DNA of 64,000 bases. Source: an uncultured Planctomycetota bacterium. GTDB taxonomy: Bacteria; Planctomycetota; PLA2; JAEUHO01. The stretch is taken from contig CAVVXN010000005.1 in NCBI GenBank assembly GCA_963752285.1, positions 1,472,001 through 1,536,000 of the forward strand. Reading direction: 5' to 3'. Under the pieces are notes generated by a model. It was not told the origin of the DNA. It did no database searches and saw only the letters and a list, made by a program, of their open reading frames with translations. How positions within the stretch are numbered: the stretch's first letter is position 1; every line of letters starts with the position of its first letter. A program made the translations under genes and the position numbers. Below are positions 11,597-50,456 of this stretch, in pieces.

Positions 11597-12102
11597 GCGA
11601 TGCGGCGAAACCAAAGGCAAGCCGCAAGCGCGAGCCCCCAACCCGCAGCCCGCCCCGGTCCCGCCCCCTCCCCCCCGCGATGCGGCGAAGCCAAAGGCGA
11701 GCCGCAAGCACGACCCCCGCCACGCCGCGCCGCCACATCCCGCAAGCCCCCCGCGATGCGGCGAAGCCAAAGGCAAGCCGCGAGCACGACCCCCGCCACG
11801 CCGCGCCGCCAAATCCCGCAAGCCCCCCGCGATGCGGCGAAGCCAAAGGCGAGCCGCGAGCACGACCCCCGCCACGCCGCGCCGCCACATCCCGCAAGCC
11901 CCCCGCGATGCGGCGAAGCCAAAGGCGAGCCGCGAGCACGACCCCCGCCACGCCACGCCACGCCGCGCCGCCACATCCCGCAAGCCCCCCGCGATGCGGC
12001 GAAGCCAAAGGCGAGCCGCGAGCACGCCCCCCCGCCCCGCGCCGCGTCGCGCCATCCCGCAAGCCGCCCGCGATGCGGCGAAGCCAAAGGCGAGCCGCGA
12101 GC
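11597..12102. repeat. Tandem array 1: 7 hairpin units GCGATGCGGCGAAGCCAAAGGCGAGCCGCRAGC, period 76-86 bp
   Basis: Unit starts at 11597, 11677, 11753, 11829, 11905, 11991, 12070; linkers are mostly repeated. Confidence 0.95.
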
Positions 12103-12121
12103 ACGAGCCCCCCCCCGACGC

Positions 12122-12229
12122 GGGGCGGCGCGCGGAGAGGCCAAAGGAGTGGCCCTGACGACGACGCCGCGTGCGAATGCACGCAAGGAGGAGGAAGGGC
12201 CGCGAACTGGCCTCTCCGCGCGCCGCCCC
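12122..12229. repeat. Structured element copy 1 (64-nt core inside a 22-bp perfect inverted repeat)
   Basis: GGGGCGGCGCGCGGAGAGGCCA...TGGCCTCTCCGCGCGCCGCCCC; core differs by 1 nt from copies 2 and 3. Confidence 0.95.
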
Positions 12230-12230
12230 C

Positions 12231-13403
12231 CTAGCCGCCGGCGCCGCTGCCGATGGTCTCGACGAGTTTAAGAAGCGGCAAAAACAACCCCAACACGATC
12301 AAGAACACCGCCCCACCCAAAAAGATGATCAACACCGGCTCGATGATCGACGTGATCGACCCGACCGCGACGTCCACCTCCTCGTCGTAGTTGTCCGCAA
12401 CGCGGATCAGCATCTTGTCGAGCTCGCCGGTCTCCTCGCCGACGTCGATCATGTTCACGACGATGTCGTCGAAGATGCCGCTCTCGCCGAGCGGCTCGGC
12501 GATCGTGCCGCCCTCGGAGATCGAGTCGCGGACCTTGGTGAGCGCGTGGACCATGACCACGTTGCCGGCGGTGTCGCGGCAGATGTCGAGGGCCTCGAGG
12601 ATCGGCACGCCCGACGCGATCAGGGTCCCGAAGGTCCGGCTGAACCGCGCCACGACCACCTTGCGGGCGATCGGGCCGACCACGGGGAGGCGGAGCTTCA
12701 GCCGGTCGAGGAAGCGACGCCCCGGGGCCGTGCGCGCCAGGAACCGGATGCCCATGACGAACAGGATGAGGATCGCACCGAGCACGTACCACTGGTCGAT
12801 CAGGAAGCGGGAGAACGCCTGCAGGGCGCGGGTCAGTGCCGGGAGGTCGCCCGCGCCGGGGAGGCTCTGGAACACCTGTTCGAACTTCGGCACCACGAAG
12901 ATCATGATGAGGAGCAGGATCGAGAGCGTGACCGTGGCGACGACAGAGGGGTAGATCAGCGCACCCTTCACGCGGCGACGCAGGCGCTGCGACTTCTCCA
13001 TGAAGCTCGCGAGGCGGGACAGGATCACGTCGAGCACGCCGCCCGTCTCGCCGGCCTTCACCATGTTCGAGTAGAGGTTGTCGAAGACGGTGCCGTGCTT
13101 CGCCATGGCCTCGGACAGCGGCGACCCGCTCTCGACGTCCTCCGTCACGTCCACCATGACGCTCTTGAAGGGACCGCGGTCCATCTGCCCTTCGAGGATC
13201 TTCAGGCTGCGCACGATCGGGAGGCCGGCGTCCTGCAGGGTCGAGAGCTGCGTCGTGAACTCCGTGAGCGCCCGCTGCGAGACCCGCTCGCGACGGCGGC
13301 GTGCCCGCGCGGGGGCCGGCATCACGGCGGTCGTGGAGCCGCGCGACGGCGTGCCTCGCGTAGCCGTGGCGGACGTCTTCGCTCGGGCGGGGATCTTGGG
13401 CAT
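12231..13403 (-). CDS. pilC: Type IV pilus/T2SS inner-membrane platform protein (PilC/GspF)
   Basis: FTTQLSTLQDAGLPI, NMVKAGETGGVL, RFSRTFGTLIASGVPILEAL, GEETGELDKML. Confidence 0.93.
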   Translation of the reverse strand: MPKIPARAKTSATATRGTPSRGSTTAVMPAPARARRRRERVSQRALTEFTTQLSTLQDAGLPIVRSLKILEGQMDRGPFKSVMVDVTEDVESGSPLSEAMAKHGTVFDNLYSNMVKAGETGGVLDVILSRLASFMEKSQRLRRRVKGALIYPSVVATVTLSILLLIMIFVVPKFEQVFQSLPGAGDLPALTRALQAFSRFLIDQWYVLGAILILFVMGIRFLARTAPGRRFLDRLKLRLPVVGPIARKVVVARFSRTFGTLIASGVPILEALDICRDTAGNVVMVHALTKVRDSISEGGTIAEPLGESGIFDDIVVNMIDVGEETGELDKMLIRVADNYDEEVDVAVGSITSIIEPVLIIFLGGAVFLIVLGLFLPLLKLVETIGSGAGG

Positions 13404-13483
13404 CTCAATCGCTCCTGCCGGACGGGCCGGCTACGTCCCTCTCGAGGCGGTGCGCCCCGACGCGCTCGGACTCGGACCGCGCC

Positions 13484-32397: not shown

Positions 32398-32440
32398 GAC
32401 CCATCATGATACCGCCGGCCCCCTTCCCCACCGCCCCCCC

Positions 32441-33066: not shown

Positions 33067-33092
33067 CCCCCCGCCCAACCGCCCGCACGCGA

Positions 33093-33194
33093 CCGGCGCG
33101 CTGAGAGGCCAAAGGAGTGGCCATGACGACGACGCCGCGTGCGAATGCACGCAAGGAGGAGGAAGGGCCGCGAACTGGCCTCTCAGCGCGCCGG
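33093..33194. repeat. Structured element copy 2 (64-nt core inside a 19-bp perfect inverted repeat)
   Basis: CCGGCGCGCTGAGAGGCCA...TGGCCTCTCAGCGCGCCGG. Confidence 0.95.
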
Positions 33195-33196
33195 GC

Positions 33197-33595
33197 CTAG
33201 CGCTTGGAGAATTGGAAGCGGGCCCTGGCACCACGCTGGCCGTACTTCTTCCGCTCCTTGGCCCGCGCGTCGCGGGTCAGGTAGCCGGCGCTCCGCAGCG
33301 AACCCTCGAACGTCGGGTTCGCGCTCGCGAGCGCGCGGGCGAGGCCGTGCCGGACCGCGTCCGCCTGGCCCTGGACGCCGCCGCCGCGGACGGAGACGTG
33401 GACGTCGTAGCTCGAGTCCGTACCGGTGAGCCGGAGGGGCTGACGGACGGCGAGGCGTGCGGCGTGCGTGGGGAAGTGCTCGCTCCAGTCGCGACGGTTC
33501 ACCGTCATCTGGCCCGAGCCGGACATGATCCGGACCCGCGCGACCGCCTTCTTCCGGCGGCCCACTCCGCGCACGAACTCCGATCGCTCCACCAT
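33197..33595 (-). CDS. rpsI: 30S ribosomal protein S9
   Basis: GRRKKAVARV, GGG..GQADAVRHG, LTRDAR.KERKKYG, QFSKR. Confidence 0.98.
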   Translation of the reverse strand: MVERSEFVRGVGRRKKAVARVRIMSGSGQMTVNRRDWSEHFPTHAARLAVRQPLRLTGTDSSYDVHVSVRGGGVQGQADAVRHGLARALASANPTFEGSLRSAGYLTRDARAKERKKYGQRGARARFQFSKR

Positions 33596-33599
33596 CGGG

Positions 33600-37748: not shown

Positions 37749-39306
37749 GAGATACCTCGTCCACGTCGCCCGCCCCCATCGTGACGACCACGTCGCCCGG
37801 TCGAACGCTCTTCGCGCCGTGCTTCACCACCGCCTGGAGGTCGGGGAACGAGGTGGCGTGGCCCCTCGCCTCGACGATCCGGGACGCAAGGTCGGCAGAC
37901 GACACGCTTCTCTGCTCCTCGTCCGTGTCGCGCGCGAAGTAGATCGGCGCGAGCCACACCTCGTCCGCTTCGGCCAGCGCCGTCGCGAACTCGGGGAGGA
38001 GGCGCCGCGTGCGGCTCGCCTGGTGGGGTTGGAACACGACGACCAGCCGGCGCCCGGGGTAGCGGCCGCGGAGCGCGCCGAGGGTCGCGCGGATCTCGGC
38101 TGGGTGGTGCCCGTAGTCGTCGAGGACGAGCACGCCGCAAAGGTCCGCGACGCGCTCGAGCCGGCGGCCGACGCCGGGGAAGACCTGGAACGCGCGGGCC
38201 ACCTCCTCGAGGTCCAGCCCCGCGGCCACGAGCGCGGCGGCCGCCGCGGCCGCGTCGAGCGCGTAGTGCGCGCCGAGGAGCGGCACCTCCAGGCGCACGG
38301 ACCGCCGGTCGCGTCGCCGCAGGAGGAACCGCTGGCGATGGCCCGACGCCGAGGGCTCCGCGTCGAGCACGCGCCAGGTCGCGCCCGCGCCGGTGCCGTG
38401 CGTCTCGACGGGTGCGCGGACGCGGGGGTCGCTCTGGAACGTGGCGCCGTGCGCCTCGCCCACGATGAGCACGCCCTCGCGCGGAACCCGCGCGGCGAAC
38501 GAGAGGAACGCCTCCTCGATCTCGGCGAGGTCGCGGTAGTAGTCGAGGTGGTCGAGGTCCACGTTCAGCACGACGCCGACGCGCGGCACGTGCTCGAGAA
38601 AGCTCCGGTCGTACTCGCACGCCTCCGCCACGAAGTGCTCGCCGCGGCCGCTCCGCGCCCCGCTCCCGACGCCCGAGAGCGACCCGCCGATCACGTAGCT
38701 CGGGTCGCGGCCCGCGTGGAGGAGGCCCCACGCGACGAGGGCGGTGGTGGTGGTCTTGCCGTGGCAGCCGGCGATCGAGATGCCGCGGCGGTCGGACATC
38801 AGGGCGCCGAGCAGGCGCGCGTACTTCCACGTCGCGATGCCGCGGCGGCGCGCCTCCTGGAGGCGGGGGTGGGCCAGCGGGACGGCGGCGGAGGCGACGA
38901 CGAGGTCCACGTCGTCGGGGATCGGCTGGTCGTCCGTACCGACCACGACCCCGACGCGGGCCAGGCGTTCGGCCCGCGGGCCGGGAGCGCGGTCGGCCCC
39001 GCCCGCGAGGAGGCCGCGCGCGGCGAGGATCTCGGCGACCGCGCTCATGCCCGCGCCTTCGACGCCCAGGAGCCACACGCGGCGGCTCGCGTCGAGGCCG
39101 CCGGCGGCGGCGGCCGGGAGCGGGCCCGGCCCCGGGGGGTCCGAGCGGGCGGGGGGCGGGTCGGGGGCGGACACGGGGGGCGGCGGCGTCCTCGGGCTCG
39201 TCTCGGCGGACAGCATCGGCGGGGAGGACGACATCGTCCTCGACGTGGACCGGGCGGGAGGGAACGGGGGCTCGTCGGGAGCGCACGGGACTCGATCGAC
39301 GATCAT
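37723..39306 (-). CDS. murC: UDP-N-acetylmuramate--L-alanine ligase (start 39306 or 39234)
   Basis: GVEGAGMSAVA, AGCHGKTTTT, EACEYDRSF, DDYGHHPAEI, VFQPHQ.SRT, MGAGD. Confidence 0.95.
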   Translation of the reverse strand: MIVDRVPCAPDEPPFPPARSTSRTMSSSPPMLSAETSPRTPPPPVSAPDPPPARSDPPGPGPLPAAAAGGLDASRRVWLLGVEGAGMSAVAEILAARGLLAGGADRAPGPRAERLARVGVVVGTDDQPIPDDVDLVVASAAVPLAHPRLQEARRRGIATWKYARLLGALMSDRRGISIAGCHGKTTTTALVAWGLLHAGRDPSYVIGGSLSGVGSGARSGRGEHFVAEACEYDRSFLEHVPRVGVVLNVDLDHLDYYRDLAEIEEAFLSFAARVPREGVLIVGEAHGATFQSDPRVRAPVETHGTGAGATWRVLDAEPSASGHRQRFLLRRRDRRSVRLEVPLLGAHYALDAAAAAAALVAAGLDLEEVARAFQVFPGVGRRLERVADLCGVLVLDDYGHHPAEIRATLGALRGRYPGRRLVVVFQPHQASRTRRLLPEFATALAEADEVWLAPIYFARDTDEEQRSVSSADLASRIVEARGHATSFPDLQAVVKHGAKSVRPGDVVVTMGAGDVDEVSRGLADRLR

Positions 39307-40445
39307 GCAGGGGCACCTCGGTCCCGGGCGGCAGAGGGGACCCTCCCTCCGATCGATCGGACGAGATCGGCGGCGACTCGACCGGCACCGCCACGCGGGG
39401 ACCGCGGCGCCCGCGCGGACATCTCGCGCCGGCGCGCGTGGTCCAGGAGGAGCGGCACGACGTCCCTCGCGACGCGCTCCGGCGAGAGGTCCTTCTCGTC
39501 GAGCAAGACCGCGGCGCCCGGCGCCACCAGCCGCCGGGCGTTCTCGTACTGCTGGCGGTCGGCGTGGTGCGGGTACGGCACCAGGACGGCCGGAACGCGG
39601 GTCGCCTCGAGTTCCTGGACGGTGAGCGCGCCCCCGCGGCAGACGACCAGGTCCGCGGTGGCGTACGCCACGTCCATGTCGGCCACGAACGGGACGACGC
39701 GGTGGGGCACGCGCGCGGCCCGGTAGGCCGCCTCGACGCCCTCGCCGCTCCCGCCGACCTGGTGGAGCACCTGGATCCGCGCGCCGAGGGACGGGTCGGC
39801 TCGGGCGGCGAGGAGGACGCCCTCGGAGAGCGCGACGTTCAACGCGCGCGCGCCGAGGCTCCCGCCGGTCACGAGGAGGGTCAGGCGTCCGGGCACGAGC
39901 CCGAAGCGCGAGGGATCGCAAAGCCCGTGGCCGATCCGCCCCCGGAGGATCGGGCCGACGACCGTGGTGTGGACCCGCGCCGGCAGCGCCGCGCGCGCCT
40001 CGGCGCGGGCGAGGTACACGCGGCGCGCGAGCGGAGCGAGCAGCCGGACGGCGGCCCCCGGGCGTTCGTCGGACGCGAGGAGGTCGAGGGGGACGCGGCG
40101 GAGCCAGGCGGCCAGGGCCAGGGGCACGCACGGCCAGCCGCCGAGCGCGACCACGGCGCGGGGTCGGACCCGCGCGAGGAGCCGCGTCGCGGCCACGACC
40201 GCGCCGACCAGCCGGGGCGCGAAGAGGGCGAGGGGCACGGGGCGGCGCACGAGCCGCGGCGCGGCCGAACGGTAGCGCGTCTCGCCCGGCGGGAACCATG
40301 CCGCCTCCGACGCGGTCCCCGGCGTCGCGAACGCCGCCGTGGCCCCGATCCGCCGCAGCGCGTCCGCGACCGCGAACCCGGGCGCGAGGTGCCCGACGGT
40401 CCCTCCGCCCACGAACAAGACGTCGATCGGCACGGGTGTCCCCAC
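39303..40445 (-). CDS. murG: Lipid II GlcNAc transferase
   Basis: GGGTVGHLAPG, GGSLGARALN, DLVVCRGGALTV.E, PYP...DRQQYENA. Confidence 0.93.
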   Translation of the reverse strand: MGTPVPIDVLFVGGGTVGHLAPGFAVADALRRIGATAAFATPGTASEAAWFPPGETRYRSAAPRLVRRPVPLALFAPRLVGAVVAATRLLARVRPRAVVALGGWPCVPLALAAWLRRVPLDLLASDERPGAAVRLLAPLARRVYLARAEARAALPARVHTTVVGPILRGRIGHGLCDPSRFGLVPGRLTLLVTGGSLGARALNVALSEGVLLAARADPSLGARIQVLHQVGGSGEGVEAAYRAARVPHRVVPFVADMDVAYATADLVVCRGGALTVQELEATRVPAVLVPYPHHADRQQYENARRLVAPGAAVLLDEKDLSPERVARDVVPLLLDHARRREMSARAPRSPRGGAGRVAADLVRSIGGRVPSAARDRGAPA

Positions 40446-40505
40446 GCGGTGCCCGTCCTTCGTATCACGCGGCGCGCCGCGGGGGGCGCGGGCGGCCGAG
40501 CGTGG

Positions 40506-41669
40506 TCAGGACCAGGGCTCGTCGCCCGCGGCGGCGGCCGTGCGGCGCGCGACGTTCACCAGGAGGCCGACGGCGATCGAGACGACGATCAGGTTGCTCC
40601 CACCCTTCGAGAGGAACGGGAGCGGGATGCCCTTCGTCGGGGCGACGTCGGTTACGACGGCGACGTTGATCAGCGCCTGGAACGCGACGACGAACACGGC
40701 GGCCGCCGCGAGGTACGAGGCGAAGGGACCGACGACGCGCGCGTACCACGCGAGCCGACTGCCGAACCACGTGAAGAGCATGAACGCGACGAGCACGGCG
40801 GCGCAGCCGAGGAAGCCCAGCTCCTCGCCGATGAGCGCGAACACGAAGTCGGTGTGGATCTCGGGCACGAACCCGAGCTTCTGCGTGCCGGCCCCGAGGC
40901 CCACGCCCAGGAGCCCGCCGCTCCCGATGGCGACGAGCGCCTCGTGCACCTGGACCCCCGTGCCCGCGAGGCGCTCGCGCACGTGCGCGAAACGCGTGTA
41001 GGCGTAGAAGAGCAGGACCGGGGTGGCGGTGACGGCGAAGGGGATCACCCGCGTCGGGCGGATCCCGGCGAGGGCGAGGAGCACCGCCGCCTCCGCCACC
41101 ACGAAGAGCGACGTGCCGAGGTCGGGCTCGAGGAGGACGAGCGCGGCGCCGAGGCCCACGGGGGCGAGGAGCGCGCCGAGCGGCGGCGAGGAGCCGAAGC
41201 GGACGTCCTCCTCGCGCCGGGCGAGGCGCTCGGCGAGGTAGAGGGCGAGCGCCAGCTTCAGCACCTCGCTCGGCTGGATCGAGAACCCCGCGATTCGGAT
41301 CCAGCGGGTCGCTCCGTTGCTCGTGTGCCCCGCCACGAGGACGAAGGCGAGGACCACGAGCACGGTCGCGAGCCCCGGCACCGCGACGCGGCGAAGCCAC
41401 TCGAGCGGCACGGCGCTCGCGGCCCACCCGGCCAGCGCGGCGAGGAACACCCACTGGAGCTGCGTCGCGAGCAGGAAGTTCGCGTCGCCGCTCGGGTGGC
41501 CCGTGAGACCTCGGACGCTGCTCCACGAGTACAGCATCACGAAGCCCAGGACCGTGAGCCCCACGGCCATCGCGAGAACGATGCGGCCGGCCGCGAGCGC
41601 GAGGCGCCCGACGGCGGCGCGCGGGCGCAGCATGTCGAACGCGGCGGGGGTCGAGAGCGCGTGCGCCAC
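40506..41669 (-). CDS. ftsW: SEDS peptidoglycan polymerase FtsW
   Basis: NGATRWI, QPSE.LK, EPDLGT, PEIHTDF.F..IGEELG, PTKGIPLPFLSKGGS. Confidence 0.95.
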   Translation of the reverse strand: MAHALSTPAAFDMLRPRAAVGRLALAAGRIVLAMAVGLTVLGFVMLYSWSSVRGLTGHPSGDANFLLATQLQWVFLAALAGWAASAVPLEWLRRVAVPGLATVLVVLAFVLVAGHTSNGATRWIRIAGFSIQPSEVLKLALALYLAERLARREEDVRFGSSPPLGALLAPVGLGAALVLLEPDLGTSLFVVAEAAVLLALAGIRPTRVIPFAVTATPVLLFYAYTRFAHVRERLAGTGVQVHEALVAIGSGGLLGVGLGAGTQKLGFVPEIHTDFVFALIGEELGFLGCAAVLVAFMLFTWFGSRLAWYARVVGPFASYLAAAAVFVVAFQALINVAVVTDVAPTKGIPLPFLSKGGSNLIVVSIAVGLLVNVARRTAAAAGDEPWS

Positions 41670-41675
41670 GCGGGG

Positions 41676-43052
41676 TCACCTCATCTTGAGAGAAGCCAAC
41701 GCGGCCAGCACGCAGATCACGGAGACGATCCAGAACCGGACCGTTACCTTGTTCTCGTGCCATCCCAGGTGCTGGTAGTGGTGGTGGAGGGGCGCGCAAC
41801 GGAACCAACGCCGACCCGTCGCGGCGGGGTCGCCTCGGCGGCGGGCCGCGCGGCGGGTCCCCTTGAACCACGTGCGCTGCCAGATCACGGAACCCGCCTC
41901 CGCGACGAAGAGCCCGCCCGCGAGGGCGAGCGTGAGCTCGTGGCGGAGCGCCACCGCGAGCACGCCGAGGATGCCCCCGATCGAGAGCGAGCCCGTGTCG
42001 CCCATGATCACCTCGGCGGGATAGGAGTTGAACCAGAGGAACCCCATCGCCCCGCCGGCGAGCGCCGCCGCGATCACGGCGAGCTCGCCGGCCTCGGGCA
42101 CGTAGAAGAGCTGGAGCTCGCCCGAGAAGTCCACGCGCCCGACGACGTACGCGATCGTCGCGAAGGCGAGGGCCACCGTGCCGGTGACGCCGATCGCGAG
42201 GCCGTCGAGGCCGTCGGTCAGGTTCACCGCGTTGCTCGCGCCGACGATCACGAGGATGCCGAGGGGGATGAACAGGAGGCCGAGGTCGATCGCGACGCCC
42301 TTGAAGAAAGGCACCTGCAGGTCCGCGCGGTGGTGGTCCCGGGGGTCGGGCCACGGCCGGGGCACCTGGATCTCGCGTCCCACCGGCGGGTCGTACGCGC
42401 GCCCCTCCGGCGTCACCATCCGGTTGTAGCGCGCGAGCTCGAGCGCGCGCCCGGGGCTGCCGAGCGTCGAGGCCGCGAGCGATGCCCACGTGGCGCCGGG
42501 CCCCACCGGCACGTGCGTCGTCCACGCGGCGTAGGGATTCGGCTTCACGCGGGGGCCGCGAAACGCCGGGAGCTGGTCGTCGGCGCTGCCCAGGCCGTAC
42601 AGCGCCGCGATCGTCACGAACGCGATCGCGAGCTGTCCCCCGAGCTTCTGCGCCTCCTTCATCCCGGGTGAGCGGGGATCCCTCAGCTTCTTGAAGTCGT
42701 CGAGCGCGCCGAGGACGCCGAAGGCGAGGAACGAGAGGATCACGATCCACGTGTATGCGTTGTCGAGCCGCGCGAAGAGCAGCGAGGACAGCCCCACGCC
42801 CACCAGGAGGATCACGCCGCCCATCGTCGGCACGGACGCCTTGCGCTGGCGCTCGGCGTCCACCTTCGCGTCGCCGGTCGTGACGAAGCCCTGGACCTTC
42901 TTCCGCTTCAGGGCCTCGACGACACCGGGCCCTACGACCGTGGCGATCAGGAACGCGAGGATCGCGGCGAAGGCCGCGCGGAAGGTGATGTACGAGAAGA
43001 GCCGAAACCCCGACACGACCTCCTTCAGCGGAACGAACAGGTGGTAGAACAT
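41676..43052 (-). CDS. mraY: Phospho-N-acetylmuramoyl-pentapeptide transferase with a LysM-like loop insertion
   Basis: PTMGG, GALDDF.K, SNAVNLTDGLDGLA, MGDTGSL, APLHHH. Confidence 0.96.
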   Translation of the reverse strand: MFYHLFVPLKEVVSGFRLFSYITFRAAFAAILAFLIATVVGPGVVEALKRKKVQGFVTTGDAKVDAERQRKASVPTMGGVILLVGVGLSSLLFARLDNAYTWIVILSFLAFGVLGALDDFKKLRDPRSPGMKEAQKLGGQLAIAFVTIAALYGLGSADDQLPAFRGPRVKPNPYAAWTTHVPVGPGATWASLAASTLGSPGRALELARYNRMVTPEGRAYDPPVGREIQVPRPWPDPRDHHRADLQVPFFKGVAIDLGLLFIPLGILVIVGASNAVNLTDGLDGLAIGVTGTVALAFATIAYVVGRVDFSGELQLFYVPEAGELAVIAAALAGGAMGFLWFNSYPAEVIMGDTGSLSIGGILGVLAVALRHELTLALAGGLFVAEAGSVIWQRTWFKGTRRAARRRGDPAATGRRWFRCAPLHHHYQHLGWHENKVTVRFWIVSVICVLAALASLKMR

Positions 43053-43074
43053 GCGGGGTTTGGGGTTCTGCCGC

Positions 43075-44517
43075 TCAGGCGCGCCGGTCTCCGATGCGGG
43101 GAGAGCTCAGGGCTTCGCCCGCCGCCTCGGCGAGCGACTCCTCGACGTGCTGGACGAGGCGCTCGAGCGCGAGACCGCGCGAGGCCTTGAACAGCCACGC
43201 GTCGCCCGGCTTCGGCACGAACGGCAGCACCTCGAGCGCCGCCTCGACGGTCGGGTGCCACGCCACCGAGCCCGCCGGCATCCCGATCGCGTGCGCGGCG
43301 CGCGCCACCGTCTCGGCGTGGCGCCCTACCGCCCAGAGCAGGTCGATCTTCGCGTTCGCGATCTTGCGGCCGAGGGACTCGTGGTGGGCTTGGGCCTCGT
43401 CCCCGAGCTCGAGCATGTCGCCGACCACGGCCACGCGCCGCCCCGAGCAGGGCCGCGCGGACAGCTCGAGGATCGCCGCCTCCATGCTGCGGGGGTTCGC
43501 GTTGTACGCGTCGTTCACGAGCGTCACGTCGGAGATCACCTGGCGGCTCATCCGCATCGGCGGCGCCTCGTAGCGCGTGAGGGCCTGCTGGATCTCCACG
43601 GGCTCCTGGCCGAGCCAGAGGCCGACCGCCACCGCCGCCAACGCGTTGGCGACGTTGTGCATGCCGAGGGACGGGACCTCCATCGCCATGCGCCCGTACA
43701 GGTAGAAGCCGATGCCGTCGGGCGTCGCGTACGCGTTCGTGCCGTACACGTCCGCGTCCTCCCAGGTCCCGTAGGTGACGAGGTGACAGGCGACGCTCTC
43801 CATCGCCTCCCGGCACCAGTAGTTGTCGGCGTTCAGGACGGCCGCGCCGTCGTCGGGGAGGCTCGCGAAGAGGTTCGACTTCTCCTCCATCACCCCGCGC
43901 ACCGTCTTCAGCCCCTCCAGGTGCGCGTGCTCGACGTTCGTCAGGACCCCCACCGTCGGGCGCGCGATGCCCGCGAGGTACGCGATCTCGCCGGGCGCGT
44001 TCGTGCCGATCTCGACGACGCAGGCGCGGCTCTCGGTGCTCATCTCGAGGAGGGTCAGCGGCACCCCGATCTCGTTGTTGTACGAGGCGCGGCTCGCCAC
44101 GACGTCCGCGCCGAGCACGTGCCGGATCATCTCCTTGACGGTCGTCTTGCCGCAGGACCCGGTGACGCCGACGACCGGCACGTCGAACTGGCTGCGGTAC
44201 CAACGGGCGAGGTCTCCGAGCGCGCGCGTCGTGTCCCGCACGACGACGACGTTGGCGGGCGTGCGGGCGAAGTCCGCGTCGCGCGCGGCGAGCGAGAACG
44301 CGGCGCCCGCGAGGAACGCCTTCTCGACGAACGCGTGGGCGTCGTGGCGCTTGCCCCGGATCGGGACGAAGAGCGAGCCGGCCGGCACCTCCCGGCTGTC
44401 GATCGTGACGGCGGGGATGAGCGGATCGCCCTCCACCGGGCCGGCGAGGTGTCCGCCGGTCGCGCGCAGCAGGTCGGAGAGTCGGATCGGTTGCATGGTG
44501 GCCCTCGCTTCGTTCAT
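43075..44517 (-). CDS. murF: UDP-MurNAc-tripeptide--D-Ala-D-Ala ligase (start 44517 or 44496)
   Basis: VTGSCGKTTVKE, YNNEIGVPLTL, NDAYNANP.SM, GDMLELG, KASRG. Confidence 0.96.
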   Translation of the reverse strand: MNEARATMQPIRLSDLLRATGGHLAGPVEGDPLIPAVTIDSREVPAGSLFVPIRGKRHDAHAFVEKAFLAGAAFSLAARDADFARTPANVVVVRDTTRALGDLARWYRSQFDVPVVGVTGSCGKTTVKEMIRHVLGADVVASRASYNNEIGVPLTLLEMSTESRACVVEIGTNAPGEIAYLAGIARPTVGVLTNVEHAHLEGLKTVRGVMEEKSNLFASLPDDGAAVLNADNYWCREAMESVACHLVTYGTWEDADVYGTNAYATPDGIGFYLYGRMAMEVPSLGMHNVANALAAVAVGLWLGQEPVEIQQALTRYEAPPMRMSRQVISDVTLVNDAYNANPRSMEAAILELSARPCSGRRVAVVGDMLELGDEAQAHHESLGRKIANAKIDLLWAVGRHAETVARAAHAIGMPAGSVAWHPTVEAALEVLPFVPKPGDAWLFKASRGLALERLVQHVEESLAEAAGEALSSPRIGDRRA

Positions 44518-46034
44518 CCGCCTCGGGAACGCGCGGCGCCTCGGACGGCGCGGAGGCGGAGCGCGGCGCGCACCTCCTCCGCGTCGTCGAAGGGCACCGT
44601 CCGCGTGCCCAGGATCTGGTACGTCTCGTGGCCCTTGCCCGCGACGAGCACGGTCCCGCCCGGGGGCGCCTCGCGGATCGCCCGCTGGATGGCCTCGCGC
44701 CGGTCCACGATCTCGGTCACGTGCACGGACGCGCCGGGCGTCAGGCCCGCGCGCATCTCCGCGAGGATGGCCGAGGGGTCCTCGGTCCGTGGGTTGTCGC
44801 TGGTCAGGAGCACGCGATCGCTCGCCTCGGCCGCGGCCCGCGCCATGCGCGGCCGCTTCGTGCGGTCGCGGTCGCCGCCGCACCCGACGACGGTGGTCAG
44901 GTGCTCGGCGCCGACCTCGCGCAGGAAGAGGAGCACGGCGCGGAGCGCCTCCTCGGTGTGCGCGTAGTCCACGAACACCGTGAGGTCGCCGGCCGGCTGC
45001 ACGCGCTCGAGGCGCCCCGGCACGCCCGCGAGCGACGCGGCGCCACGCGCGGCGAGGGCCGGGTCTACGCCGAGCGCGCGGGCGGCGCCCACGGCGCACG
45101 CGAGGTTGATCGCGTTGTGCCTCCCGACGAGCGGCGTCTCGACCTCGATCTCGACCTCGCCGTCCACGCGGAGCGTGAACGCGGTGCCCGAGAGCGAGAG
45201 ACGTACGTTCCCGACCGCGAGGTCGGCGTCGGGTCCTGTCCCGACGGTGAGGACGCGCGCGGGCGTCATGCCCACCAGGGAACGGCCGCGCGCGTCGTCC
45301 ACGACGAGGACCGCGGTCGCCGACACGTCGAGCGCGGTGAAGAGGCGGGCCTTCGCCCGGAAGTACGCGTCCTCGTCGGCGTGGTAGTCGAGGTGGTCGC
45401 GGCCGAGGTTCGTGAAGACGCCGGCAGAGAAGGAGAGGCCCGCGACGCGACCCTGGTCGAGCGCGTGGCTCGACACCTCGAGGACCGCCGCTCGGCTCCC
45501 CGCGTCCGTCGCGGCCGCGAGGAGACGGCGGAGCTCGAGCAGTCCGGGCGTCGTGTTGTGCGCGGGTCGCCGGTCGCCCGGCGCGATCTCGTGCGCGACG
45601 GTGCCCAGCACGCTCGTCGGGACCCCGGCCCCGCGCAGCGCGGCGGCCGTCAGCCAGGCGGTCGTCGTCTTGCCCTTGGTGCCGGTGACGCCGACGAGCG
45701 ACGTCGTGGTCTCGGGTCGTCCGTAGACGTGCTCCGCCGCGGCGAGGAGCGCGGCCTCCACGTCGGGGACGCGCAGGTGGGGCACGGAGACGGGGAGGTC
45801 CACGTCCGTCACGACGAACGCCGCGCCGCGGTCGAGCGCGTCCTTCGCGTGGTCGAGCCCGTCGCCGCCTGGCCCGCGCCGGGCGACGAAGAGCTGGCCC
45901 GCCTCCACGCGGCGCGAGTCGTCCTCGACCCCCGTCGCCCGGCGGTCGGGCGGGGTCGCCACGAGCCGTCCGCCGAGCGCCTCGGCCCACGCGGCCGCGG
46001 TCGCCGGAGCGCGTTCCTGTGCGCGCACGGTCAC
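44514..46034 (-). CDS. murE: UDP-MurNAc-dipeptide--meso-DAP ligase
   Basis: GVTGTKGKTTT, EVSSHAL.Q.R, VDYAHT, GCGGDRD..KR, DNPR (DAP-type), AGKGHE. Confidence 0.96.
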   Translation of the reverse strand: MTVRAQERAPATAAAWAEALGGRLVATPPDRRATGVEDDSRRVEAGQLFVARRGPGGDGLDHAKDALDRGAAFVVTDVDLPVSVPHLRVPDVEAALLAAAEHVYGRPETTTSLVGVTGTKGKTTTAWLTAAALRGAGVPTSVLGTVAHEIAPGDRRPAHNTTPGLLELRRLLAAATDAGSRAAVLEVSSHALDQGRVAGLSFSAGVFTNLGRDHLDYHADEDAYFRAKARLFTALDVSATAVLVVDDARGRSLVGMTPARVLTVGTGPDADLAVGNVRLSLSGTAFTLRVDGEVEIEVETPLVGRHNAINLACAVGAARALGVDPALAARGAASLAGVPGRLERVQPAGDLTVFVDYAHTEEALRAVLLFLREVGAEHLTTVVGCGGDRDRTKRPRMARAAAEASDRVLLTSDNPRTEDPSAILAEMRAGLTPGASVHVTEIVDRREAIQRAIREAPPGGTVLVAGKGHETYQILGTRTVPFDDAEEVRAALRLRAVRGAARSRGG

Positions 46035-47887
46035 CTGCCCTCCTCCAGGCCCGGCGCCGCGCCCTCGTCGAGGGCCCGCCCGTCCAGATAGGCGAGACTT
46101 CGCTCGAGGATCTGGCGCGCCGCCGGCGCGGCGACGCTCCCGCCGTAGGGCTTGACCCCGGTCACGGGGTCCGGCGCTTCGCGATCGACCTGGGCCATGA
46201 CGAGTACCGCGAGCCGGGGACGGTCGCGAGGCGCGAACCCGGCGAACCCGGCGATCTGCCAGGTTGTCCTCTGGATCTCCGCGGTGCCCGTCTTCCCCGC
46301 GACCTCGATGTCCGCGCCCTCGAACGCCTCGTGGGCGGTGCCGTCCTCCACCGTGTCGGCGAGTCCCTGCCGAACGAGCGCGAGGTCCTGCGGGCGACGG
46401 CACACGGGCGGAAGGTCCCGGCGCCCGCCGCCGTGCCCGGGGAGGAGGGTGGGACGGACGACGCGCGCGTCGTCGCGGGCCAGCGCCGCGAAGATGGAGA
46501 GGAGACGGAGGGGCGAGATCGCGAAGCCCTGCCCGAACGCGAACCCGAGCGTCGGGAAGAGCGGGTTCCTCGAGGACGTGTCCACCGTCACGGGCTCGGA
46601 ACGCGAGAGCTCGATGCCGGTCGGGCCCGAGAAGCCGAGGTCCTCGAACAGGGCGAACGCGGCGGCGGGGTCCCGGTCGGCCGCCGGCGTGCCGTCCGGC
46701 CGGAGCGCCATGAGCCGCCAGAGGAGCTCGGAGACGCCGACGTTGCTCGAGTGGCCGATGATGCGGACGACCGTGCCCGCGCCGTCGTCCTCGCCGTTCG
46801 CGTGGACGTCGTGCACCAGGCGAGACGCGCCGTGCCACTCGAAGCGTTTCTCGGCCGGCAGGTCGATGCGCTCGTCTCGTCCGACCACGCCGAGGCCCAA
46901 GGCACGCGCGGCGACGAGCGGCTTGAAGATCGAGCCGGGCGGCCAGGTGCCGGTGACCGCGACGTCGAAGCCACGGCCCGACGCACCGGCGTGCCGGTTC
47001 GCCATCGCCAACACCTCGCCCGAGCCGGGGACGAGGACGATCGCCGTGGCCGCGCGCGGCGACCACCGCGACTGGAGCTCGTCGAGCGCGGACTCGACGT
47101 AGTGCTGCACGACGACGTCGAGCGTCAGGCGGACGTCGCGCCCCTCCACGAGGAGCGGATCGACCGCGAGCGCGGAGCGGAACGTCGGCGACGTGCCGCC
47201 CGAGTGCGCGACCGGCACGGTCATCCGGCCACCCCGGAGCGCGGCGTCGAGCGAACGCTCGAGACCCCCGCCGGCGCGGCCCCGCTCGGCCGACGGCGCC
47301 AGCCCGAGCACGTCGATCGCGTAGTCGCCGTTCGGGTACGTCCGACGTTCCCCCACCGACACCTTGAGCCCCTTCAGGTCGGCGGCGAGCGTCTCGGTGA
47401 ACGTCGTGAGCCCGAGGAGCACGGAGACGACGCGTTCGTCCTCGATCTCGTAGCGGAGCGGACGGTGCCGGCACCCCGCCGGCGCGGACCGGATGGCGGC
47501 CGCGATCGAACGCCCGCCGTCGTCGTCGTCGAGCACGAGGGCGAGCCGGCGCGCGAACGCCTCGGGGTCGCCCAACAGCGAGGGGTCCACGGCCACGGAG
47601 AGCACGCGGCGGCTCGACGCGAGCACGCGACCGCGCCGGTCGAGGAGGCGACCACGGAGGCCGCGGAACGTGACGCGCGCGTCGTGCCCGTGCGCCGCGG
47701 CGTGGCGCCACGTGGCCGCGTCCACGAGCTGGAGCTTCCCGAGGCGGCCGAGGAGCACCAGGAAGAGCACGAGCAGCGCGCCGAAGACGAAGTTCATCCG
47801 GAACCGCTGGACGGCCTCCAGGTTGCGCCGCATCTGCCCGACCGGCACGCTCCGCGGGAGTCGGGGCGTGGTCTTCTGCGCGCTCAC
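46031..47887 (-). CDS. ftsI: Class B penicillin-binding protein FtsI
   Basis: TM anchor, RG.LLDR.G, SxxK (GSIFKP), SSN, KTG; dcw position. Confidence 0.9.
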   Translation of the reverse strand: MSAQKTTPRLPRSVPVGQMRRNLEAVQRFRMNFVFGALLVLFLVLLGRLGKLQLVDAATWRHAAAHGHDARVTFRGLRGRLLDRRGRVLASSRRVLSVAVDPSLLGDPEAFARRLALVLDDDDGGRSIAAAIRSAPAGCRHRPLRYEIEDERVVSVLLGLTTFTETLAADLKGLKVSVGERRTYPNGDYAIDVLGLAPSAERGRAGGGLERSLDAALRGGRMTVPVAHSGGTSPTFRSALAVDPLLVEGRDVRLTLDVVVQHYVESALDELQSRWSPRAATAIVLVPGSGEVLAMANRHAGASGRGFDVAVTGTWPPGSIFKPLVAARALGLGVVGRDERIDLPAEKRFEWHGASRLVHDVHANGEDDGAGTVVRIIGHSSNVGVSELLWRLMALRPDGTPAADRDPAAAFALFEDLGFSGPTGIELSRSEPVTVDTSSRNPLFPTLGFAFGQGFAISPLRLLSIFAALARDDARVVRPTLLPGHGGGRRDLPPVCRRPQDLALVRQGLADTVEDGTAHEAFEGADIEVAGKTGTAEIQRTTWQIAGFAGFAPRDRPRLAVLVMAQVDREAPDPVTGVKPYGGSVAAPAARQILERSLAYLDGRALDEGAAPGLEEGR

Positions 47888-48183
47888 TCGCCCTCCCCCC
47901 CGCGCGCGGCATCGGTTCCCGTCTCGGCGGTCGCCCTGGGGGCGACGTCGGGGTCCGGCTCCCCCCGGAGTCGGCGGTCGCGCTCCTCGAGGAGGGTCCG
48001 CGGCGACAGCTCGGTCGCGAGGCGCGCCTCGGCCTCCCGGACCTGCTTCGCGAGACCGTCGCGGCGGCGCATCTCGTCCCAGACCTGCTGTTCGAGGCGT
48101 CGGAGCTCGCCCTGCTGCCGGACGCCGACCAGCACCGTCCCCACGACGGCCAGCAACACGGCCATGGACGTCAACGTCCGCAT
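47884..48183 (-). CDS. ftsL: FtsL-like small TM/coiled-coil protein
   Basis: Lies between rsmH and ftsI; TM followed by a coiled coil ending ELSPRTL. Confidence 0.65.
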   Translation of the reverse strand: MRTLTSMAVLLAVVGTVLVGVRQQGELRRLEQQVWDEMRRRDGLAKQVREAEARLATELSPRTLLEERDRRLRGEPDPDVAPRATAETGTDAARGGEGE

Positions 48184-48193
48184 GCGCTCCTCG

Positions 48194-49132
48194 TCACGCT
48201 CCCTCGCCCTCGGCCACCGACTCCAACCGTTCGAACGCCCTCAGCCGCGCCGGCCGCGCCCGCCGGTTTCGGCGCACCTCGGCGTCGCTCGGCCGGAGCG
48301 GCTTCTTCGTCCTGACCCGCCCCCATCCCCGCCGTCCCGCCTCGCGGAACGCCTCCTTCACGATCCGGTCTTCCAACCGGTGGAAGGAGATCGCGACGAC
48401 CCGCCCGCCGGGCGCCACCTCGGCGAGCGCCGCGGCGACCCCTCGCTCCACGTGGAGGAGCTCGTCGTTCACGGCGATCCTGAGCGCCTGGAAGCTCCGC
48501 GTGGCCGGGTCGTGCCGCCCGGTCCTGAGCGCGGCGCGTCGGACGACCTCGGCGAGCGTCCCCGCGTCGGCGATCGGCCGCGCGCGAACGATCGCGCGCG
48601 CCACCGCACGGGCGCGGGGCTCCTCGCCGTAGCGGTGGAGCAGCTCGGCGAGCGCCTCCACCTCCAGGTGGTTCACGAGATCCAGAGCGGTGGGCCCCTC
48701 CGCGGTCGGGTCGAAGCGCATGTCGGCGCCTTCCCCCGCGCGCTGGAACGAGAACCCCCGCGCCGGGTCGTCGAGCTGGAACGACGAGAGGCCCAGGTCG
48801 AGGAGCACGCCGTCGGGCGCCGACGCCCCCTCGCGCCGCAGGACCTCCGCGAGGTCCGCGTACGACGCGTGGACGAGGCGCACCCGCGCACCGAAGCGCG
48901 CGAGGACCTCCCCGGCGAGCACCAGCGCCCGCGGGTCCCGGTCGATGCCGAGGAGCTCCGCGCCGACGGTCCGGTCGAGGATGGCGGCGGCGTGCCCGCC
49001 GAGCCCGACCGTCCCGTCCACGACGAGCCGCGGCCGCCCGGCCGGCAGGTCCCCGAGGAGGTGCTCGAGCACCTCCTCCACCATGACGGGTCGATGGATG
49101 GGTTGAGAAAGATCGTCCCGGGCCGGGGCCAT
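48194..49132 (-). CDS. rsmH: 16S rRNA m4C1402 methyltransferase
   Basis: VDGTVGLGGHA, DLGLSSFQLD...RGFSF, FQALRIAVNDEL, ISFHRLEDRIVK. Confidence 0.97.
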   Translation of the reverse strand: MAPARDDLSQPIHRPVMVEEVLEHLLGDLPAGRPRLVVDGTVGLGGHAAAILDRTVGAELLGIDRDPRALVLAGEVLARFGARVRLVHASYADLAEVLRREGASAPDGVLLDLGLSSFQLDDPARGFSFQRAGEGADMRFDPTAEGPTALDLVNHLEVEALAELLHRYGEEPRARAVARAIVRARPIADAGTLAEVVRRAALRTGRHDPATRSFQALRIAVNDELLHVERGVAAALAEVAPGGRVVAISFHRLEDRIVKEAFREAGRRGWGRVRTKKPLRPSDAEVRRNRRARPARLRAFERLESVAEGEGA

Positions 49133-49147
49133 CCCGGCTCGGCCCCC

Positions 49148-49573: not shown

Positions 49574-49604
49574 CGGACTCCTGCCCGCCTCTCTGGTCCC
49601 GTGC

Positions 49605-49640
49605 GACAGAAGATTACACTTTGTGACACCTCGTGCAACC
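49605..49640 (-). promoter_or_regulatory. Possible MraZ operator (10-bp periodic boxes) in the AT-richer dcw promoter
   Basis: + strand GACAG/TACAC/GACAC/GCAAC at 49605, 49615, 49625, 49635. Confidence 0.45.
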
Positions 49641-49975
49641 GGCAATTCAGCGTCTCGACACGCCGTCGTAAGTATCTGCCACACAATCACTTGTGAATGC
49701 GAACGGATACGATACACAACCGTGCGTGACACCCAGATTCGTGTGGAATCGCTGTGGAGCGAAGCCGCAAGTCGCGAGGCGACAACGGGTTGCGAGGGCG
49801 GCACGACCGTCGGGTCACGCAGCGCCCCGCGGGCCCGCGCCGGGTGGGCCCGAGGCGGCCCGCGGCTTCGCCGGGGCCGACGCGGAGCGTGCGGGCGACC
49901 GGCCGGCGGCGCGTCGGCGCCGGCGCGCGCTCGGCCGGTGTTCGGCCTCCCTCCCCCGCCGCCGTACCATCCCGA

Positions 49976-50107
49976 CCCCGCGCGCGCGAGGACGGTCACG
50001 CCCTGGAGGGTCGGACGGCCCGAACCGGGTCAGGTCCGGAAGGAAGCAGCCCTAAGGGTTCGACCCGACGTCTCCCGGTCCCCGTGACCGTCCTCCCGGG
50101 CGCGGGG
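49976..50107 (+). ncRNA. ffs: Signal recognition particle RNA (4.5S)
   Basis: Domain IV motif GTCAGGTCCGGAAGGAAGCAGC; closing stem GAGGACGGTCACG/CGTGACCGTCCTC; -10-like TACCAT at 49965. Confidence 0.95.
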
Positions 50108-50205
50108 CGCTGAGGGGCCAGTTCGCGGCCCTTCCTCCTCCTTGCGTGCATTCGCACGCGGCGTCGTCGTCATGGCCACTCCTTTGGCCCCTCAGCGCCC
50201 CGCGC
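50100..50205. repeat. Structured element copy 3 (inverted relative to copies 1 and 2; 21-bp perfect inverted repeat)
   Basis: GCGCGGGGCGCTGAGGGGCCA...TGGCCCCTCAGCGCCCCGCGC; core is the exact reverse complement of copy 2. Confidence 0.95.
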
Positions 50206-50226
50206 CGCGCGTGGGGTGGGGCGGGG

Positions 50227-50456
50227 GCTCGCGGCTTCGGCCTTCGGCCTTGCCGCGTCGCGGGGTGGGCGGGCGGCTCGCGGCTTCGGCCTTCGGCCTT
50301 GCCGCGTCGCGGGGTGGGCGCGGGGCTCGCGGCTTCGGCCTTCGGCCTTGCCGCGTCGCGGGGCCGGCGCGGGGCTCGCGGCTTCGGCCTTCGGCCTTGC
50401 CGCGTCGCGGGGTGGGCGGGGGCTCGCGGCTTCGGCCTTCGGCCTTGCCGCGTCGC
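50227..50456. repeat. Tandem array 3: 5 identical 35-nt hairpin units, period 48-49 bp
   Basis: GCTCGCGGCTTCGGCCTTCGGCCTTGCCGCGTCGC at 50227, 50276, 50325, 50374, 50422 with G-rich 13-14 nt linkers. Confidence 0.95.

Follow-up and report, generated by a model that had tools for sequence, protein, structure and literature searches.

Structured, non-coding repeats behind stop codons in a family of uncultured Planctomycetia: probable copies of a MITE family

Repeats that abut stop codons in a GC-rich genome are familiar from mycobacteria, whose MIRU minisatellites, tandem repeats of 40–100 bp, occupy intergenic sites, are oriented like the genes and, it is said, contain small in-frame ORFs that couple translation. 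The arrays described here resemble them as tandem repeats between genes, in gene orientation and at stop codons of a GC-rich genome, but each is tied to a hairpin head, and their periods of 49, 76 and 99 nt leave no common frame, unlike in the MIRUs. A preference for short target motifs is known as well: Correia and RUP elements produce a TA duplication, and IS630 prefers CTAG.

Other described repeats come close in their build. Pneumococcal BOX elements have the order boxA-boxB(n)-boxC, and in the S. suis variants described in PMC3049150 other terminal modules enclose the same boxB. The same source describes SPRITE, a pneumococcal repeat of ~105 nt resembling a Rho-independent terminator. As presented there, SPRITE shares with our head the length, the long stem and the strong enrichment near coding-sequence 3' ends; its stem is followed by a U-rich tract, whereas the head has none and contains conserved internal loops. 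REP/BIME elements, by the criterion given in PMC3733652, are 20–40-nt hairpins with an unpaired GTAG or CGTC tag.

Three composite loci in the window

The window, that is the whole stretch of 64,000 nt analysed, belongs to a source genome of 4.6 Mb with 73% GC. Its relevant features, with the evidence for each (TRF, Tandem Repeats Finder run on the window), are as follows.

11583–12122, minus strand: linker and array A, 7 hairpin units, period 76 with 6.9 copies (TRF, unit count, ORF map)
12123–12233, minus strand: head copy A, a three-helix hairpin of ~110 nt (exact core, covariance model R1 with 125 bits, alignment)
12231–12233, minus strand: TAG stop of the pilC-type gene, ahead of head A
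12231–13430, minus strand: pilC-type gene, T2SSF (GC3-filtered ORF; Pfam T2SSF, E = 3e-63)
31618–32397, minus strand: YebC/TACO1-family gene, co-directional, beginning right past array B (Pfam)
32440–33071, minus strand: array B, 13 hairpins in which two types alternate, period 99 with 6.4 copies and two hairpins per period (TRF, unit count)
33091–33201, minus strand: head copy B (exact core, alignment, covariance model with 127.8 bits)
33197–33595, minus strand: rpsI, ribosomal protein S9, with its native C-terminus ...FSKR and the stop TAG (Pfam)
49993–50087, plus strand: small SRP RNA gene (Rfam RF00169, 48.7 bits)
50095–50205, plus strand: head copy C (exact core, fold, alignment, covariance model)
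50204–50472, plus strand: array C, 5 hairpin units, period 49 with 5.5 copies, ending in G-runs (TRF, unit count)
50492–50971, minus strand: DUF4760 gene, convergent, its rare TAA stop abutting the G-rich end of array C (Pfam)

The interval of head A takes in 6 flanking nt and hence the pilC TAG. Array A is G-rich on the minus strand, which is the sense strand, and is followed by a co-directional gene; array B occupies the rpsI–yebC spacer. A preliminary description of this DNA had ascribed one architecture to the three loci, a head and behind it 7, 13 or 5 hairpin units, numbers with which the motif count agrees. Its statements that at all three loci transcription from upstream would pass through the head before the G-rich strand, and that the window holds no transposase, reverse transcriptase or Cas family, also held, the latter in a comparison of 37 window ORFs with Pfam. 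The placement of the head 1–2 nt past the pilC and rpsI stops proved right for the locus-specific outer pairs only, the conserved stem starting 3–5 nt after the TAG. The proposed overlap of a head with the SRP RNA was not borne out, since the first paired head base (50100) lies 12 nt beyond the end of the Rfam match. The extended terminal helix of the SRP RNA, as read from the sequence, stops ~4 nt before head C, which begins a few nt past it.

The three heads share an exact core of 57 nt (12156–12212 and 33124–33180, minus strand; 50116–50172, plus strand), for which 100 shuffles gave 0 matches and which is identical in nine head copies of the source genome. At the gathering threshold, Rfam recognised only tRNA and SRP RNA in the window, and four head loci gave 0 matches at E up to 1; the suggested check for a catalogued family thus returned no match. 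Heads and arrays also generate spurious long ORFs, such as frames of 276 and 831 codons through array B.

Copies and insertion sites in the source genome and its relatives

From three copies in 64 kb, many had been predicted genome-wide, and 26 heads, falling into sequence subfamilies, were indeed found in the source genome. With gene calls that are crude (GC3 filter), 21 of the 26 lie in sense orientation behind the stop of a co-oriented gene, 0–11 nt after it or overlapping it, a sense bias of 21 versus at most 3. Locus-specific sequence of 1 to 11 nt separates the stop from the conserved stem. The stops just upstream of 14 heads are TAG (8), TAA (3) and TGA (3), whereas genome-wide these codons make up 23%, 0.8% and 76% of stops, respectively (TAR enrichment, p = 2.7e-5).

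A downstream hairpin array is carried by 21 of the 26 heads, and every array in this genome stands beside a head (16/16 clusters of at least three units; 95/95 type-I units), in support of the earlier claim that arrays amplify locally. The units are GC hairpins, of which at least six types can be told apart by sequence; they are joined head-to-tail and laid out as CTCGCGG-hairpin-CCGCRTCGCGGGG (no 5' GTAG; CGTC 3' of a GC-only stem). The array fades into G-runs, and no conserved, boxC-like 3' module was found in the source genome. In all other genomes inspected, the heads are without such arrays. The ancestral unit was thus not a head joined to an array, and the arrays are private to the species of the source genome.

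The head was found only in one family of uncultured Planctomycetia. It occurs in 24 of 28 other genomes of this family, with 1–93 copies each, the remaining four giving no head match, and in none of 11 genomes of the sister family; within one genome the copies hardly differ, and between genomes they have diverged. In a comparison of empty and filled sites made between species, not strains, head sites are not conserved between congeneric species: all five syntenic head sites of a congeneric genome are without a head in the source genome, and the rpsI–yebC spacer measures 61 nt in the former versus ~800 nt in the latter. Behind rpsI, a head is present in one of 23 other family genomes, the congeneric genome and 21 others being empty there, and this arrangement arose in two genera. 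For the rpsI–head stretch a search for RNA data sets found none, and four DNA contig sets compared with it yielded only short fragments of that and other copies, with no empty site bridged. A metagenome scan with the core motif of the source genome gave 0 matches, and the single match to an end motif of the CAZPOZ01 type, in coding-looking sequence without a head, was taken as chance. In the literature on REP or MITE in Planctomycetes we found no description of the head element.

In the relatives, the head makes up the core of a longer element of about 245–247 nt, bounded by terminal inverted repeats and target-site duplications, with ends of the form CAACGCCACCAAG...CTTGGTGGCCATG or TGTGCCGTGCC...GGACA. 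In the CAZPOZ01 record set, the element of ~247 nt has terminal inverted repeats of ~20 bp, CAnnGCCACCAAGnTAGG, at both ends, and is flanked by a target duplication of 11 bp with TGA at its centre; of 28 assessable copies, 23 have flanking 11-mers that agree at 9 or more of 11 positions, and in 12 of these the agreement is complete. The terminal inverted repeats of the congeneric genome are TGTGCC.../...GGACA, and its element has [C/G]TAG on both sides, a 4-bp NTAG duplication; the two 4-mers agree fully in 5 of 14 assessable copies, and most of the remainder are one or two changes from CTAG. These boundary tests were restricted to copies with recognisable end motifs (28/45 and 14/23, respectively). 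The stop of a real gene stands at the element boundary in 36/45, 18/23 and 18/20 copies of three relatives (78–90%), in both orientations, and only 10–33% of such motifs outside genes are stop codons, as estimated on the source genome as a proxy. Antisense and sense heads, relative to the adjacent gene, are about equally frequent (19:15 and 6:7), and no reading frame is conserved in the head copies. The polarity claimed to be fixed is thus nearly so in the source genome and not in the relatives, where stop codons are approached in either orientation; docking at 3' ends is therefore best explained by a preference for stop-codon-like targets together with tolerance, rather than by a polarity inherent in the family.

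The source genome itself departs from this form. A k-mer search of the left flank against 1.5 kb downstream returned only 7- to 12-mers of chance size in place of a target duplication, except for 14-mers at three tandem heads (C5:1771531–1772006), which reflect their 182-nt repeat. No sequence homologous to the arms of the congeneric or CAZPOZ01 elements was found there; neither a conserved right terminus nor outer terminal inverted repeats of the composites were found, and the head has only its own inverted arms of ~20 bp. Enrichment of TA/NTAG at the right ends (11/19) is suggestive only.

Explanations for the spread of the head

These observations make it probable that the three repeats are copies of a non-coding, stop-codon-docking MITE family spread by a transposase supplied in trans. 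The targets of the putative transposase would be short AT-containing motifs: in some lineages NTAG, in another the 11-bp TGA-centred site. In genomes of 73% GC, a sizeable minority of such sites outside genes would be real stop codons, and insertions elsewhere would mostly be harmful, so that the surviving copies would stand directly behind genes. The lineage of the source genome would carry a derived form without recognisable arms, spread to 26 sites, in which a hairpin just downstream of the head would have been expanded repeatedly by local duplication, presumably slippage or unequal exchange, into a boxA-boxB(n)-like composite. Because that genome shows no target duplication, no arms like those of the relatives and no conserved right terminus, we infer transposition for its form; selection presumably accounts for its sense bias. 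Co-transcription probably makes the element a strong 3'-UTR hairpin, which may incidentally stabilise or end transcripts. Further features fit the MITE reading less well: a palindromic target does not predict the sense bias, which is missing in the relatives, a variable number of locus-specific nucleotides between stop and stem is unusual for a fixed transposon end, and the search for a transposase with ends like those of the element found none.

The head folds with energies of −75 to −81 kcal/mol (z = −7.6 to −8.9). Across 16 genomes its stems covary, with double changes in 22 of 33 pairs (score 0.333 versus 0.123 shuffled), and the unpaired CUUCCUCCUCCU, GUCGUCGUC and CCUCC motifs are conserved. 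A fourth small helix (GGCG/CGUC) predicted by RNAalifold showed no covariation and many unpaired cells and was dropped. The conserved part of the element is this internal three-helix core, the termini and the duplication length varying between lineages; in MITEs the pattern is usually the reverse, and conservation of the core above the termini hints that the core has a function. A bolder form of the MITE reading, which we regard as doubtful, is that selection has maintained the core as a portable module throughout the genera of the family while the transposon chassis was swapped (4-bp NTAG versus 11-bp TGA-centred). It would direct or favour insertion at stop codons, or serve as a 3'-end cassette retained by the host (a hairpin with anti-Shine-Dalgarno-like loops), and in the source genome would nucleate G-rich hairpin minisatellites in transcribed orientation.

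The same conservation, and the retention of the core despite lineage-specific termini, would suit a host-serving RNA module of mRNA 3' ends, be it a mobile terminator, a stabiliser or a translation-linked regulator. Its long hairpin would begin within the footprint of the terminating ribosome, its unpaired, anti-Shine-Dalgarno-like CCUCC would bind ribosome-binding sites or a protein, and its copies would persist by benefiting each gene. The 21 sense heads at stops in the source genome, including those of rpsI and pilC, the head adjoining the SRP RNA and the origin of a head behind rpsI in two genera agree with this reading. We nevertheless consider it unlikely, given that antisense heads are about as frequent as sense ones in the relatives, that sites differ between species, that four of 28 same-family genomes have no head match and that Rfam found nothing even at E = 1. 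Moreover, the non-Watson–Crick stem pairs of the sense strand show no excess of G.U over A.C (8:11, 14:27 and 34:48) and so give no usable indication of the strand of action, which, together with the mixed orientation in the relatives, fits a constraint at the DNA level. An intrinsic, Rho-independent terminator was rejected as well: the GC-rich stem is present, but in the window loci and head copies no U-tract or T-run follows it, the 3' arm being followed by sequence of the GTCGCGTGCGG type.

Movement as single-stranded DNA, in the manner of a REP/REPIN or IS200/IS605-type element served by an HUH (Y1, RAYT-like) or rolling-circle (Y2, IS91-like) enzyme, would account for three traits of the source genome: the lack of a duplication, a fixed orientation and a dependence on hairpins. 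The composites there indeed have outer ends without target duplication or terminal inverted repeats and a strong orientation bias, their stems are conserved by structure and not by sequence, and the genome encodes one Y1_Tnp and four Y2_Tnp genes. This mechanism is nonetheless quite improbable. The earlier suggestion that a RAYT/IS200-type HUH gene might be linked to some copies found no support, the single Y1_Tnp gene being flanked by the unrelated repeat TCGACTCCCGACCCAGATTTTCG, and the ends of the IS91-like Y2_Tnp element of 2354 bp, defined in the congeneric genome, are unrelated to the head. The relatives have clear direct target duplications, the spacing of 0 to 11 nt from the stop offers no fixed target tetranucleotide of the IS200/IS605 kind, and the units are without the GTAG or CGTC tag as given in PMC3733652. 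DDE_3 genes are present too, again with unrelated ends; no partner insertion sequence with matching ends was found at the DDE_3, Y1_Tnp and Y2_Tnp loci searched, most of the relatives being fragmented assemblies of hundreds of contigs.

A small protein encoded on the reverse strand of the head is scarcely credible: GGAG, a 5- to 7-nt spacer and ATG ACG ACG ACG would give MTTTPR..., and a Shine-Dalgarno-like motif with an ATG recurs there in most copies and genera, but the ATG is altered in 7 of 26 copies of the source genome (CAGG in 6, CACG in 1), the frame runs antisense into the stop of the neighbouring gene, and it is not kept downstream because the inner loop measures 4, 5, 6, 7 or 10 nt between genera. 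An integron attC site, a SECIS or read-through signal, a bridge or guide RNA and a ribozyme were rejected on the dispersal of copies behind housekeeping genes, the use of all three stop codons, the lack of loop–target complementarity and the lack of a ribozyme match in Rfam.

Significance and comparison with known systems

Read as a MITE, the element offers a natural example of how the taste of a transposon for AT-containing motifs in a very GC-rich genome may come to look like homing to stop codons; the 11-bp target duplication of one relative has the stop codon at its very centre, in either orientation. A folded core that is conserved and covaries across the family while the ends differ offers a direct way to test for selection on MITE cores. 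For annotation, knowledge of the family would explain spurious ORFs and inflated intergenic spacers such as that behind rpsI, and heads and arrays probably break assemblies of uncultured Planctomycetia. Should the transposase come to light, an integrase centred on stop codons would be a useful tool.

The preliminary description had placed the repeats in a non-autonomous family like REP, BIME or ERIC. As a non-coding, multi-copy element (26 heads), the head does belong to the REP/ERIC/MITE world, but it is not a GTAG/CGTC REP and has no HUH linkage. With REP/BIME and the REPIN-RAYT system, as described in PMC3733652, it shares GC-rich extragenic hairpins, clusters behind genes and compensatory stem changes. 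It differs from that description in its three helices and ~110 nt, in having neither tag nor RAYT linkage, and in its head-to-tail array units, REP dimers being mostly inverted. Correia/CREE, RUP and ERIC, as presented in PMC3184786, are likewise elements of 100–250 nt with terminal inverted repeats, long stem-loops, lineage bursts and no transposase gene. A further likeness lies in short duplications of the target that include TA. The present element differs from them in its conserved internal core, its lineage-specific termini and duplications (4 bp versus 11 bp), its position at stop codons in most copies of the relatives, and a form in the source genome without detectable terminal repeats or duplications.

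In build the element resembles BOX, which PMC3049150 and PMC3184786 describe as small, non-coding, multi-copy, tightly folded, enriched downstream of genes and probably mobilised in trans, and as modular: an internal module of ~45 nt is repeated in tandem a variable number of times and occurs with different terminal modules. The element has no sequence relation to BOX, so that the likeness is one of analogy only, and its host is a GC-rich member of the Planctomycetia. Its array follows a conserved hairpin and fades into G-runs without a boxC-like end, its units are GC hairpins of several sequence types, and its orientation in the source genome is almost always sense. We read it as a new MITE family, unusually structured and with a BOX-like build; in kind it belongs with elements that are already familiar, and it does not represent a new type of system.

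Heads and hairpin arrays of the window and its genome

The preliminary description of three related loci in the window was borne out, as all three share an identical 57-nt core, for which the chance expectation is none, at the following positions.

12156-12212 (-), core behind the pilC-type gene
33124-33180 (-), core behind rpsI
50116-50172 (+), core beside the SRP RNA gene

Each core is embedded in a ~110-nt sequence (the head) predicted to form a long hairpin (-75 to -81 kcal/mol, z ~ -8), and a linker of 21-27 nt joins it to a tandem array of hairpin units with periods of 76, 99 and 49, respectively; the claimed counts of 7, 13 and 5 units were confirmed. The claimed polarity, with the head read first and then the G-rich array strand, likewise held, since the head was co-oriented with the gene 5′ of it (pilC-type, rpsI or SRP RNA) at all three loci, and the G-rich strand of the array is thus the sense strand. 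The proposed overlap of the head with the SRP RNA was absent, the two simply abutting.

The arrays hold open long reading frames of 276, 831 and 837 codons, which would be mis-called as genes or gene extensions.

32404-33234 (-), array-spanning frame
30659-33154 (-), array-spanning frame
9785-12298 (-), array-spanning frame

Hairpins of type-I arrays, including the one at 32440-33071, occur most often in two variants, GGCCGCC...GGCGGCG and GCCCGCC...GGCGGGG, which are distinguished by a compensatory exchange of G-C for C-G and share a G.G mismatch at the identical stem position. The window of this planctomycete genome also carries a division/cell-wall gene cluster at 36873-49147 (-), with mraW, a PBP transpeptidase, Mur ligases, an mraY-type gene, ftsW and murB, which appears ordinary.

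Throughout G000, the genome holding the window (4.64 Mb, 73% GC, five contigs, reported 89% complete), 26 heads were detected by BLAST and a covariance model. Based on crude gene calls (stop-to-stop frames, GC3 about 0.8-0.98, GC3 > GC1 > GC2), a co-oriented gene precedes 21 of the 26; its stop lies 5′ of the stem in 14 (12 at 0-11 nt, two at 23-30 nt), and in the other seven the gene ends on a TGA within the 5′ arm of the head (CTGAG). Of the remaining five heads, one lies beside SRP RNA, one is degenerate, one belongs to a convergent pair and two are inner members of a triple tandem. The 14 stops 5′ of the stem comprised eight TAG, three TAA and three TGA, versus 23% TAG, 0.8% TAA and 76% TGA over 2694 crudely called genes (TAG plus TAA excess, p = 2.7e-5). 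Arrays in G000 are invariably tied to a head: each of the 16 clusters with at least three units is preceded by a head on its own strand, the commonest unit matches at 95 sites, every one of them in a head-linked array, and 21 of the 26 heads carry an array when relaxed matches and three diverged heads with other hairpin types are included.

Two tandem paralogous genes at C3:155538 and C3:157856 share the tail ...FQWQLAL; the final codons and TGA of one are formed by the 5′ arm of a head, and the other also ends in CTGA, with a complete head 23 nt 3′ of the stop. A similar partial 5′-arm duplication was seen 5′ of the head at locus L058/L039.

Pairing and distribution of the head

RNAalifold predicted 33 pairs from the 26 G000 copies, with compensatory changes in 17, and when 22 copies drawn from 16 other genomes were compared, 22 of the 33 were changed on both sides. 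In this 22-copy alignment, which was fitted to the model and so favours the structure, the covariation score was 0.333, compared with 0.123 for shuffled alignments (0/500 shuffles reached 0.333) and 0.05-0.08 for slid partners. Support extended to three helices (outer stem, ~20 bp; middle helix, 3 bp; inner hairpin, 6 bp) but not to a fourth, small one. The most conserved letters are the unpaired CUUCCUCCUCCU, GUCGUCGUC(A/C)UG and CCUCC, stretches that we take to resemble the anti-Shine-Dalgarno sequence.

Non-Watson-Crick pairs on the sense strand exhibited no G.U excess (G.U versus A.C, 8:11, 14:27 and 34:48), both orientations are tolerated in relatives, neither a U-tract 3′ of the stem nor an Rfam match was found, and a reverse-strand SD-ATG frame was not conserved. 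The pairing constraint thus looks DNA-level or strand-neutral; the transcribed hairpin may have a further role in G000.

The first covariance model of the head, R1, matched 16 of 24 other same-family genomes, 0/11 of the sister family and 0/5 of other families of the phylum, and the cross-genus model R2 matched 24 of 28 within the family, with 1-93 copies per genome, and still 0/11 of the sister family. An exact-motif scan over all prokaryotes, one genome per species, returned 71 loci, all of them in four MAG records with Planctomycetia, Planctomycetales or Planctomycetota as title. Copies are near-uniform inside one genome and different between genomes, which is the pattern of lineage-specific bursts.

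The longer element in relatives and its form in G000

In relatives, the flanks of many copies place the head at the core of a longer element. In the CAZPOZ01 record set, from a relative, a ~247-nt unit is delimited by inverted ends (CAACGCCACCAAG... and ...CTTGGTGGCCATG), and the host sequence next to it is directly repeated: among the 28 of 45 copies that were assessable (both end motifs and full flanks), the flanking 11-mers, centred on TGA or TCA, matched at no fewer than 9 of 11 positions in 23 and perfectly in 12. In the congeneric genome G001, a ~245-nt unit has [C/G]TAG on either side; the flanking 4-mers agree fully in 5 of 14 assessable copies and otherwise mostly lie one or two changes from CTAG, and one GTAG/GTAG pair favours a duplication over a palindromic end.

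The boundary motif in relatives is usually a real stop codon, which in most CAZPOZ01 copies ends exactly 30 nt 5′ of the head on the sense side or lies 96 nt 3′ of it on the antisense side.

Stop codons at the element boundary in relatives
CAZPOZ01: 45 copies; sense only 19; antisense only 15; both 2; neither 9
G001: 23 copies; sense only 6; antisense only 7; both 5; neither 5
DATLLK01: 20 copies; sense only 5; antisense only 6; both 7; neither 2

Since stops make up 10-33% of TGAG, CTGAG or CTAG sites outside called genes, with G000 sequence as a proxy and incomplete gene calls, they are over-represented at the boundaries; this excess could stem from a wider target preference or from removal of harmful insertions.

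G001, G009 and G013 contain head-to-tail runs of entire elements, as would be expected if every insertion recreates the target motif. Runs of 3-5 whole heads or elements were located as follows.

G013 C38:43242-44010, period 164
G009 C4:333482-334064, period about 200-270
G001 C7:187537-188108, 243 nt
G000 C5:1771531-1772006, 182 nt

Several G001 elements (L115, L116, L122, L123, L126) lie 3′ of a second conserved sequence of ~40 nt, GGCCGCGCGATT..GTTCGTGGGTCGTGCAGG, which represents an additional repeat family or else a longer form of the element.

Nothing corresponding to the relatives' arms is present at G000 heads, and comparison of the left flank with the sequence up to 1.5 kb away gave no duplication. 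The 0-11 nt between stop and conserved stem differ even inside one subfamily, and the outermost stem pairs vary among copies but remain complementary. Orientation is 21 sense versus at most 3 otherwise, from which relatives differ. The composites of head and array have no common right end, the arrays fading into G-runs; TA, rare in G000 (0.83% of positions), is found no more than 20 nt from the right end in 11/19 composites versus ~29% expected, an enrichment that is suggestive only.

The commonest unit (95 copies in G000) is absent from 25 other family genomes. Diverged G000 heads carry arrays of different hairpins, so array growth characterises the elements of this lineage in general rather than reflecting descent from a single array. 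Hairpin type correlates only partially with head subfamily, and the two-hairpin 99-nt period common to the rpsI locus and C5:236471 suggests that composites can be copied whole.

Turnover, transposases and known systems

At the five G001 head sites whose flanks both map together in G000, G000 is headless. G001 has a 61-nt rpsI-yebC spacer and a TGA rpsI stop, and G000 has a TAG stop followed by the head and 13 hairpins; a head behind rpsI was present in just one of 23 other family genomes, G019. These comparisons are between species at 70-76% DNA identity, where exact empty-site junctions are not alignable.

Among the Y1_Tnp, DDE_3 and Y2_Tnp genes considered, no partner transposase of the head element was identified. 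G000 encodes one Y1_Tnp, one DDE_3 and four IS91-like Y2_Tnp, the last including the following loci.

C1:7884-9660, IS91-like Y2_Tnp
C5:299500-315500, IS91-like Y2_Tnp

The sole Y1_Tnp (HUH) gene (364 codons; region C1:102035-105358, also C1:97520-97720 and 104076-104181) was rejected as partner, since the inverted copies on its two sides belong to another, AT-richer repeat, TCGACTCCCGACCCAGATTTTCG, which also forms short tandem arrays nearby and is a second, unrelated family of the type with inverted repeats flanking a tyrosine transposase. The 2354-bp IS91-like element of G001, with four identical copies (three at contig ends), was likewise dismissed, its ends being unrelated to the head. 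In a Pfam search, rolling-circle Y2_Tnp genes numbered four in G000, eight in G001 and zero in 14 control genomes.

Identity with GTAG/CGTC REPs (PMC3733652) was rejected, and literature searches listed no such element for Planctomycetes. The relatives' elements show the usual MITE characters as given in PMC3184786, and the head is a family-wide MITE core. We rate the whole as a new, unusually organised MITE family, a real feature and not a new class of system. According to PMC3049150, its head-array build resembles pneumococcal BOX elements, composed of boxA, a tandem boxB array and boxC, with the same boxB surrounded by other terminal modules in S. suis, and the placement of the head resembles that of SPRITE, near 3′ ends.
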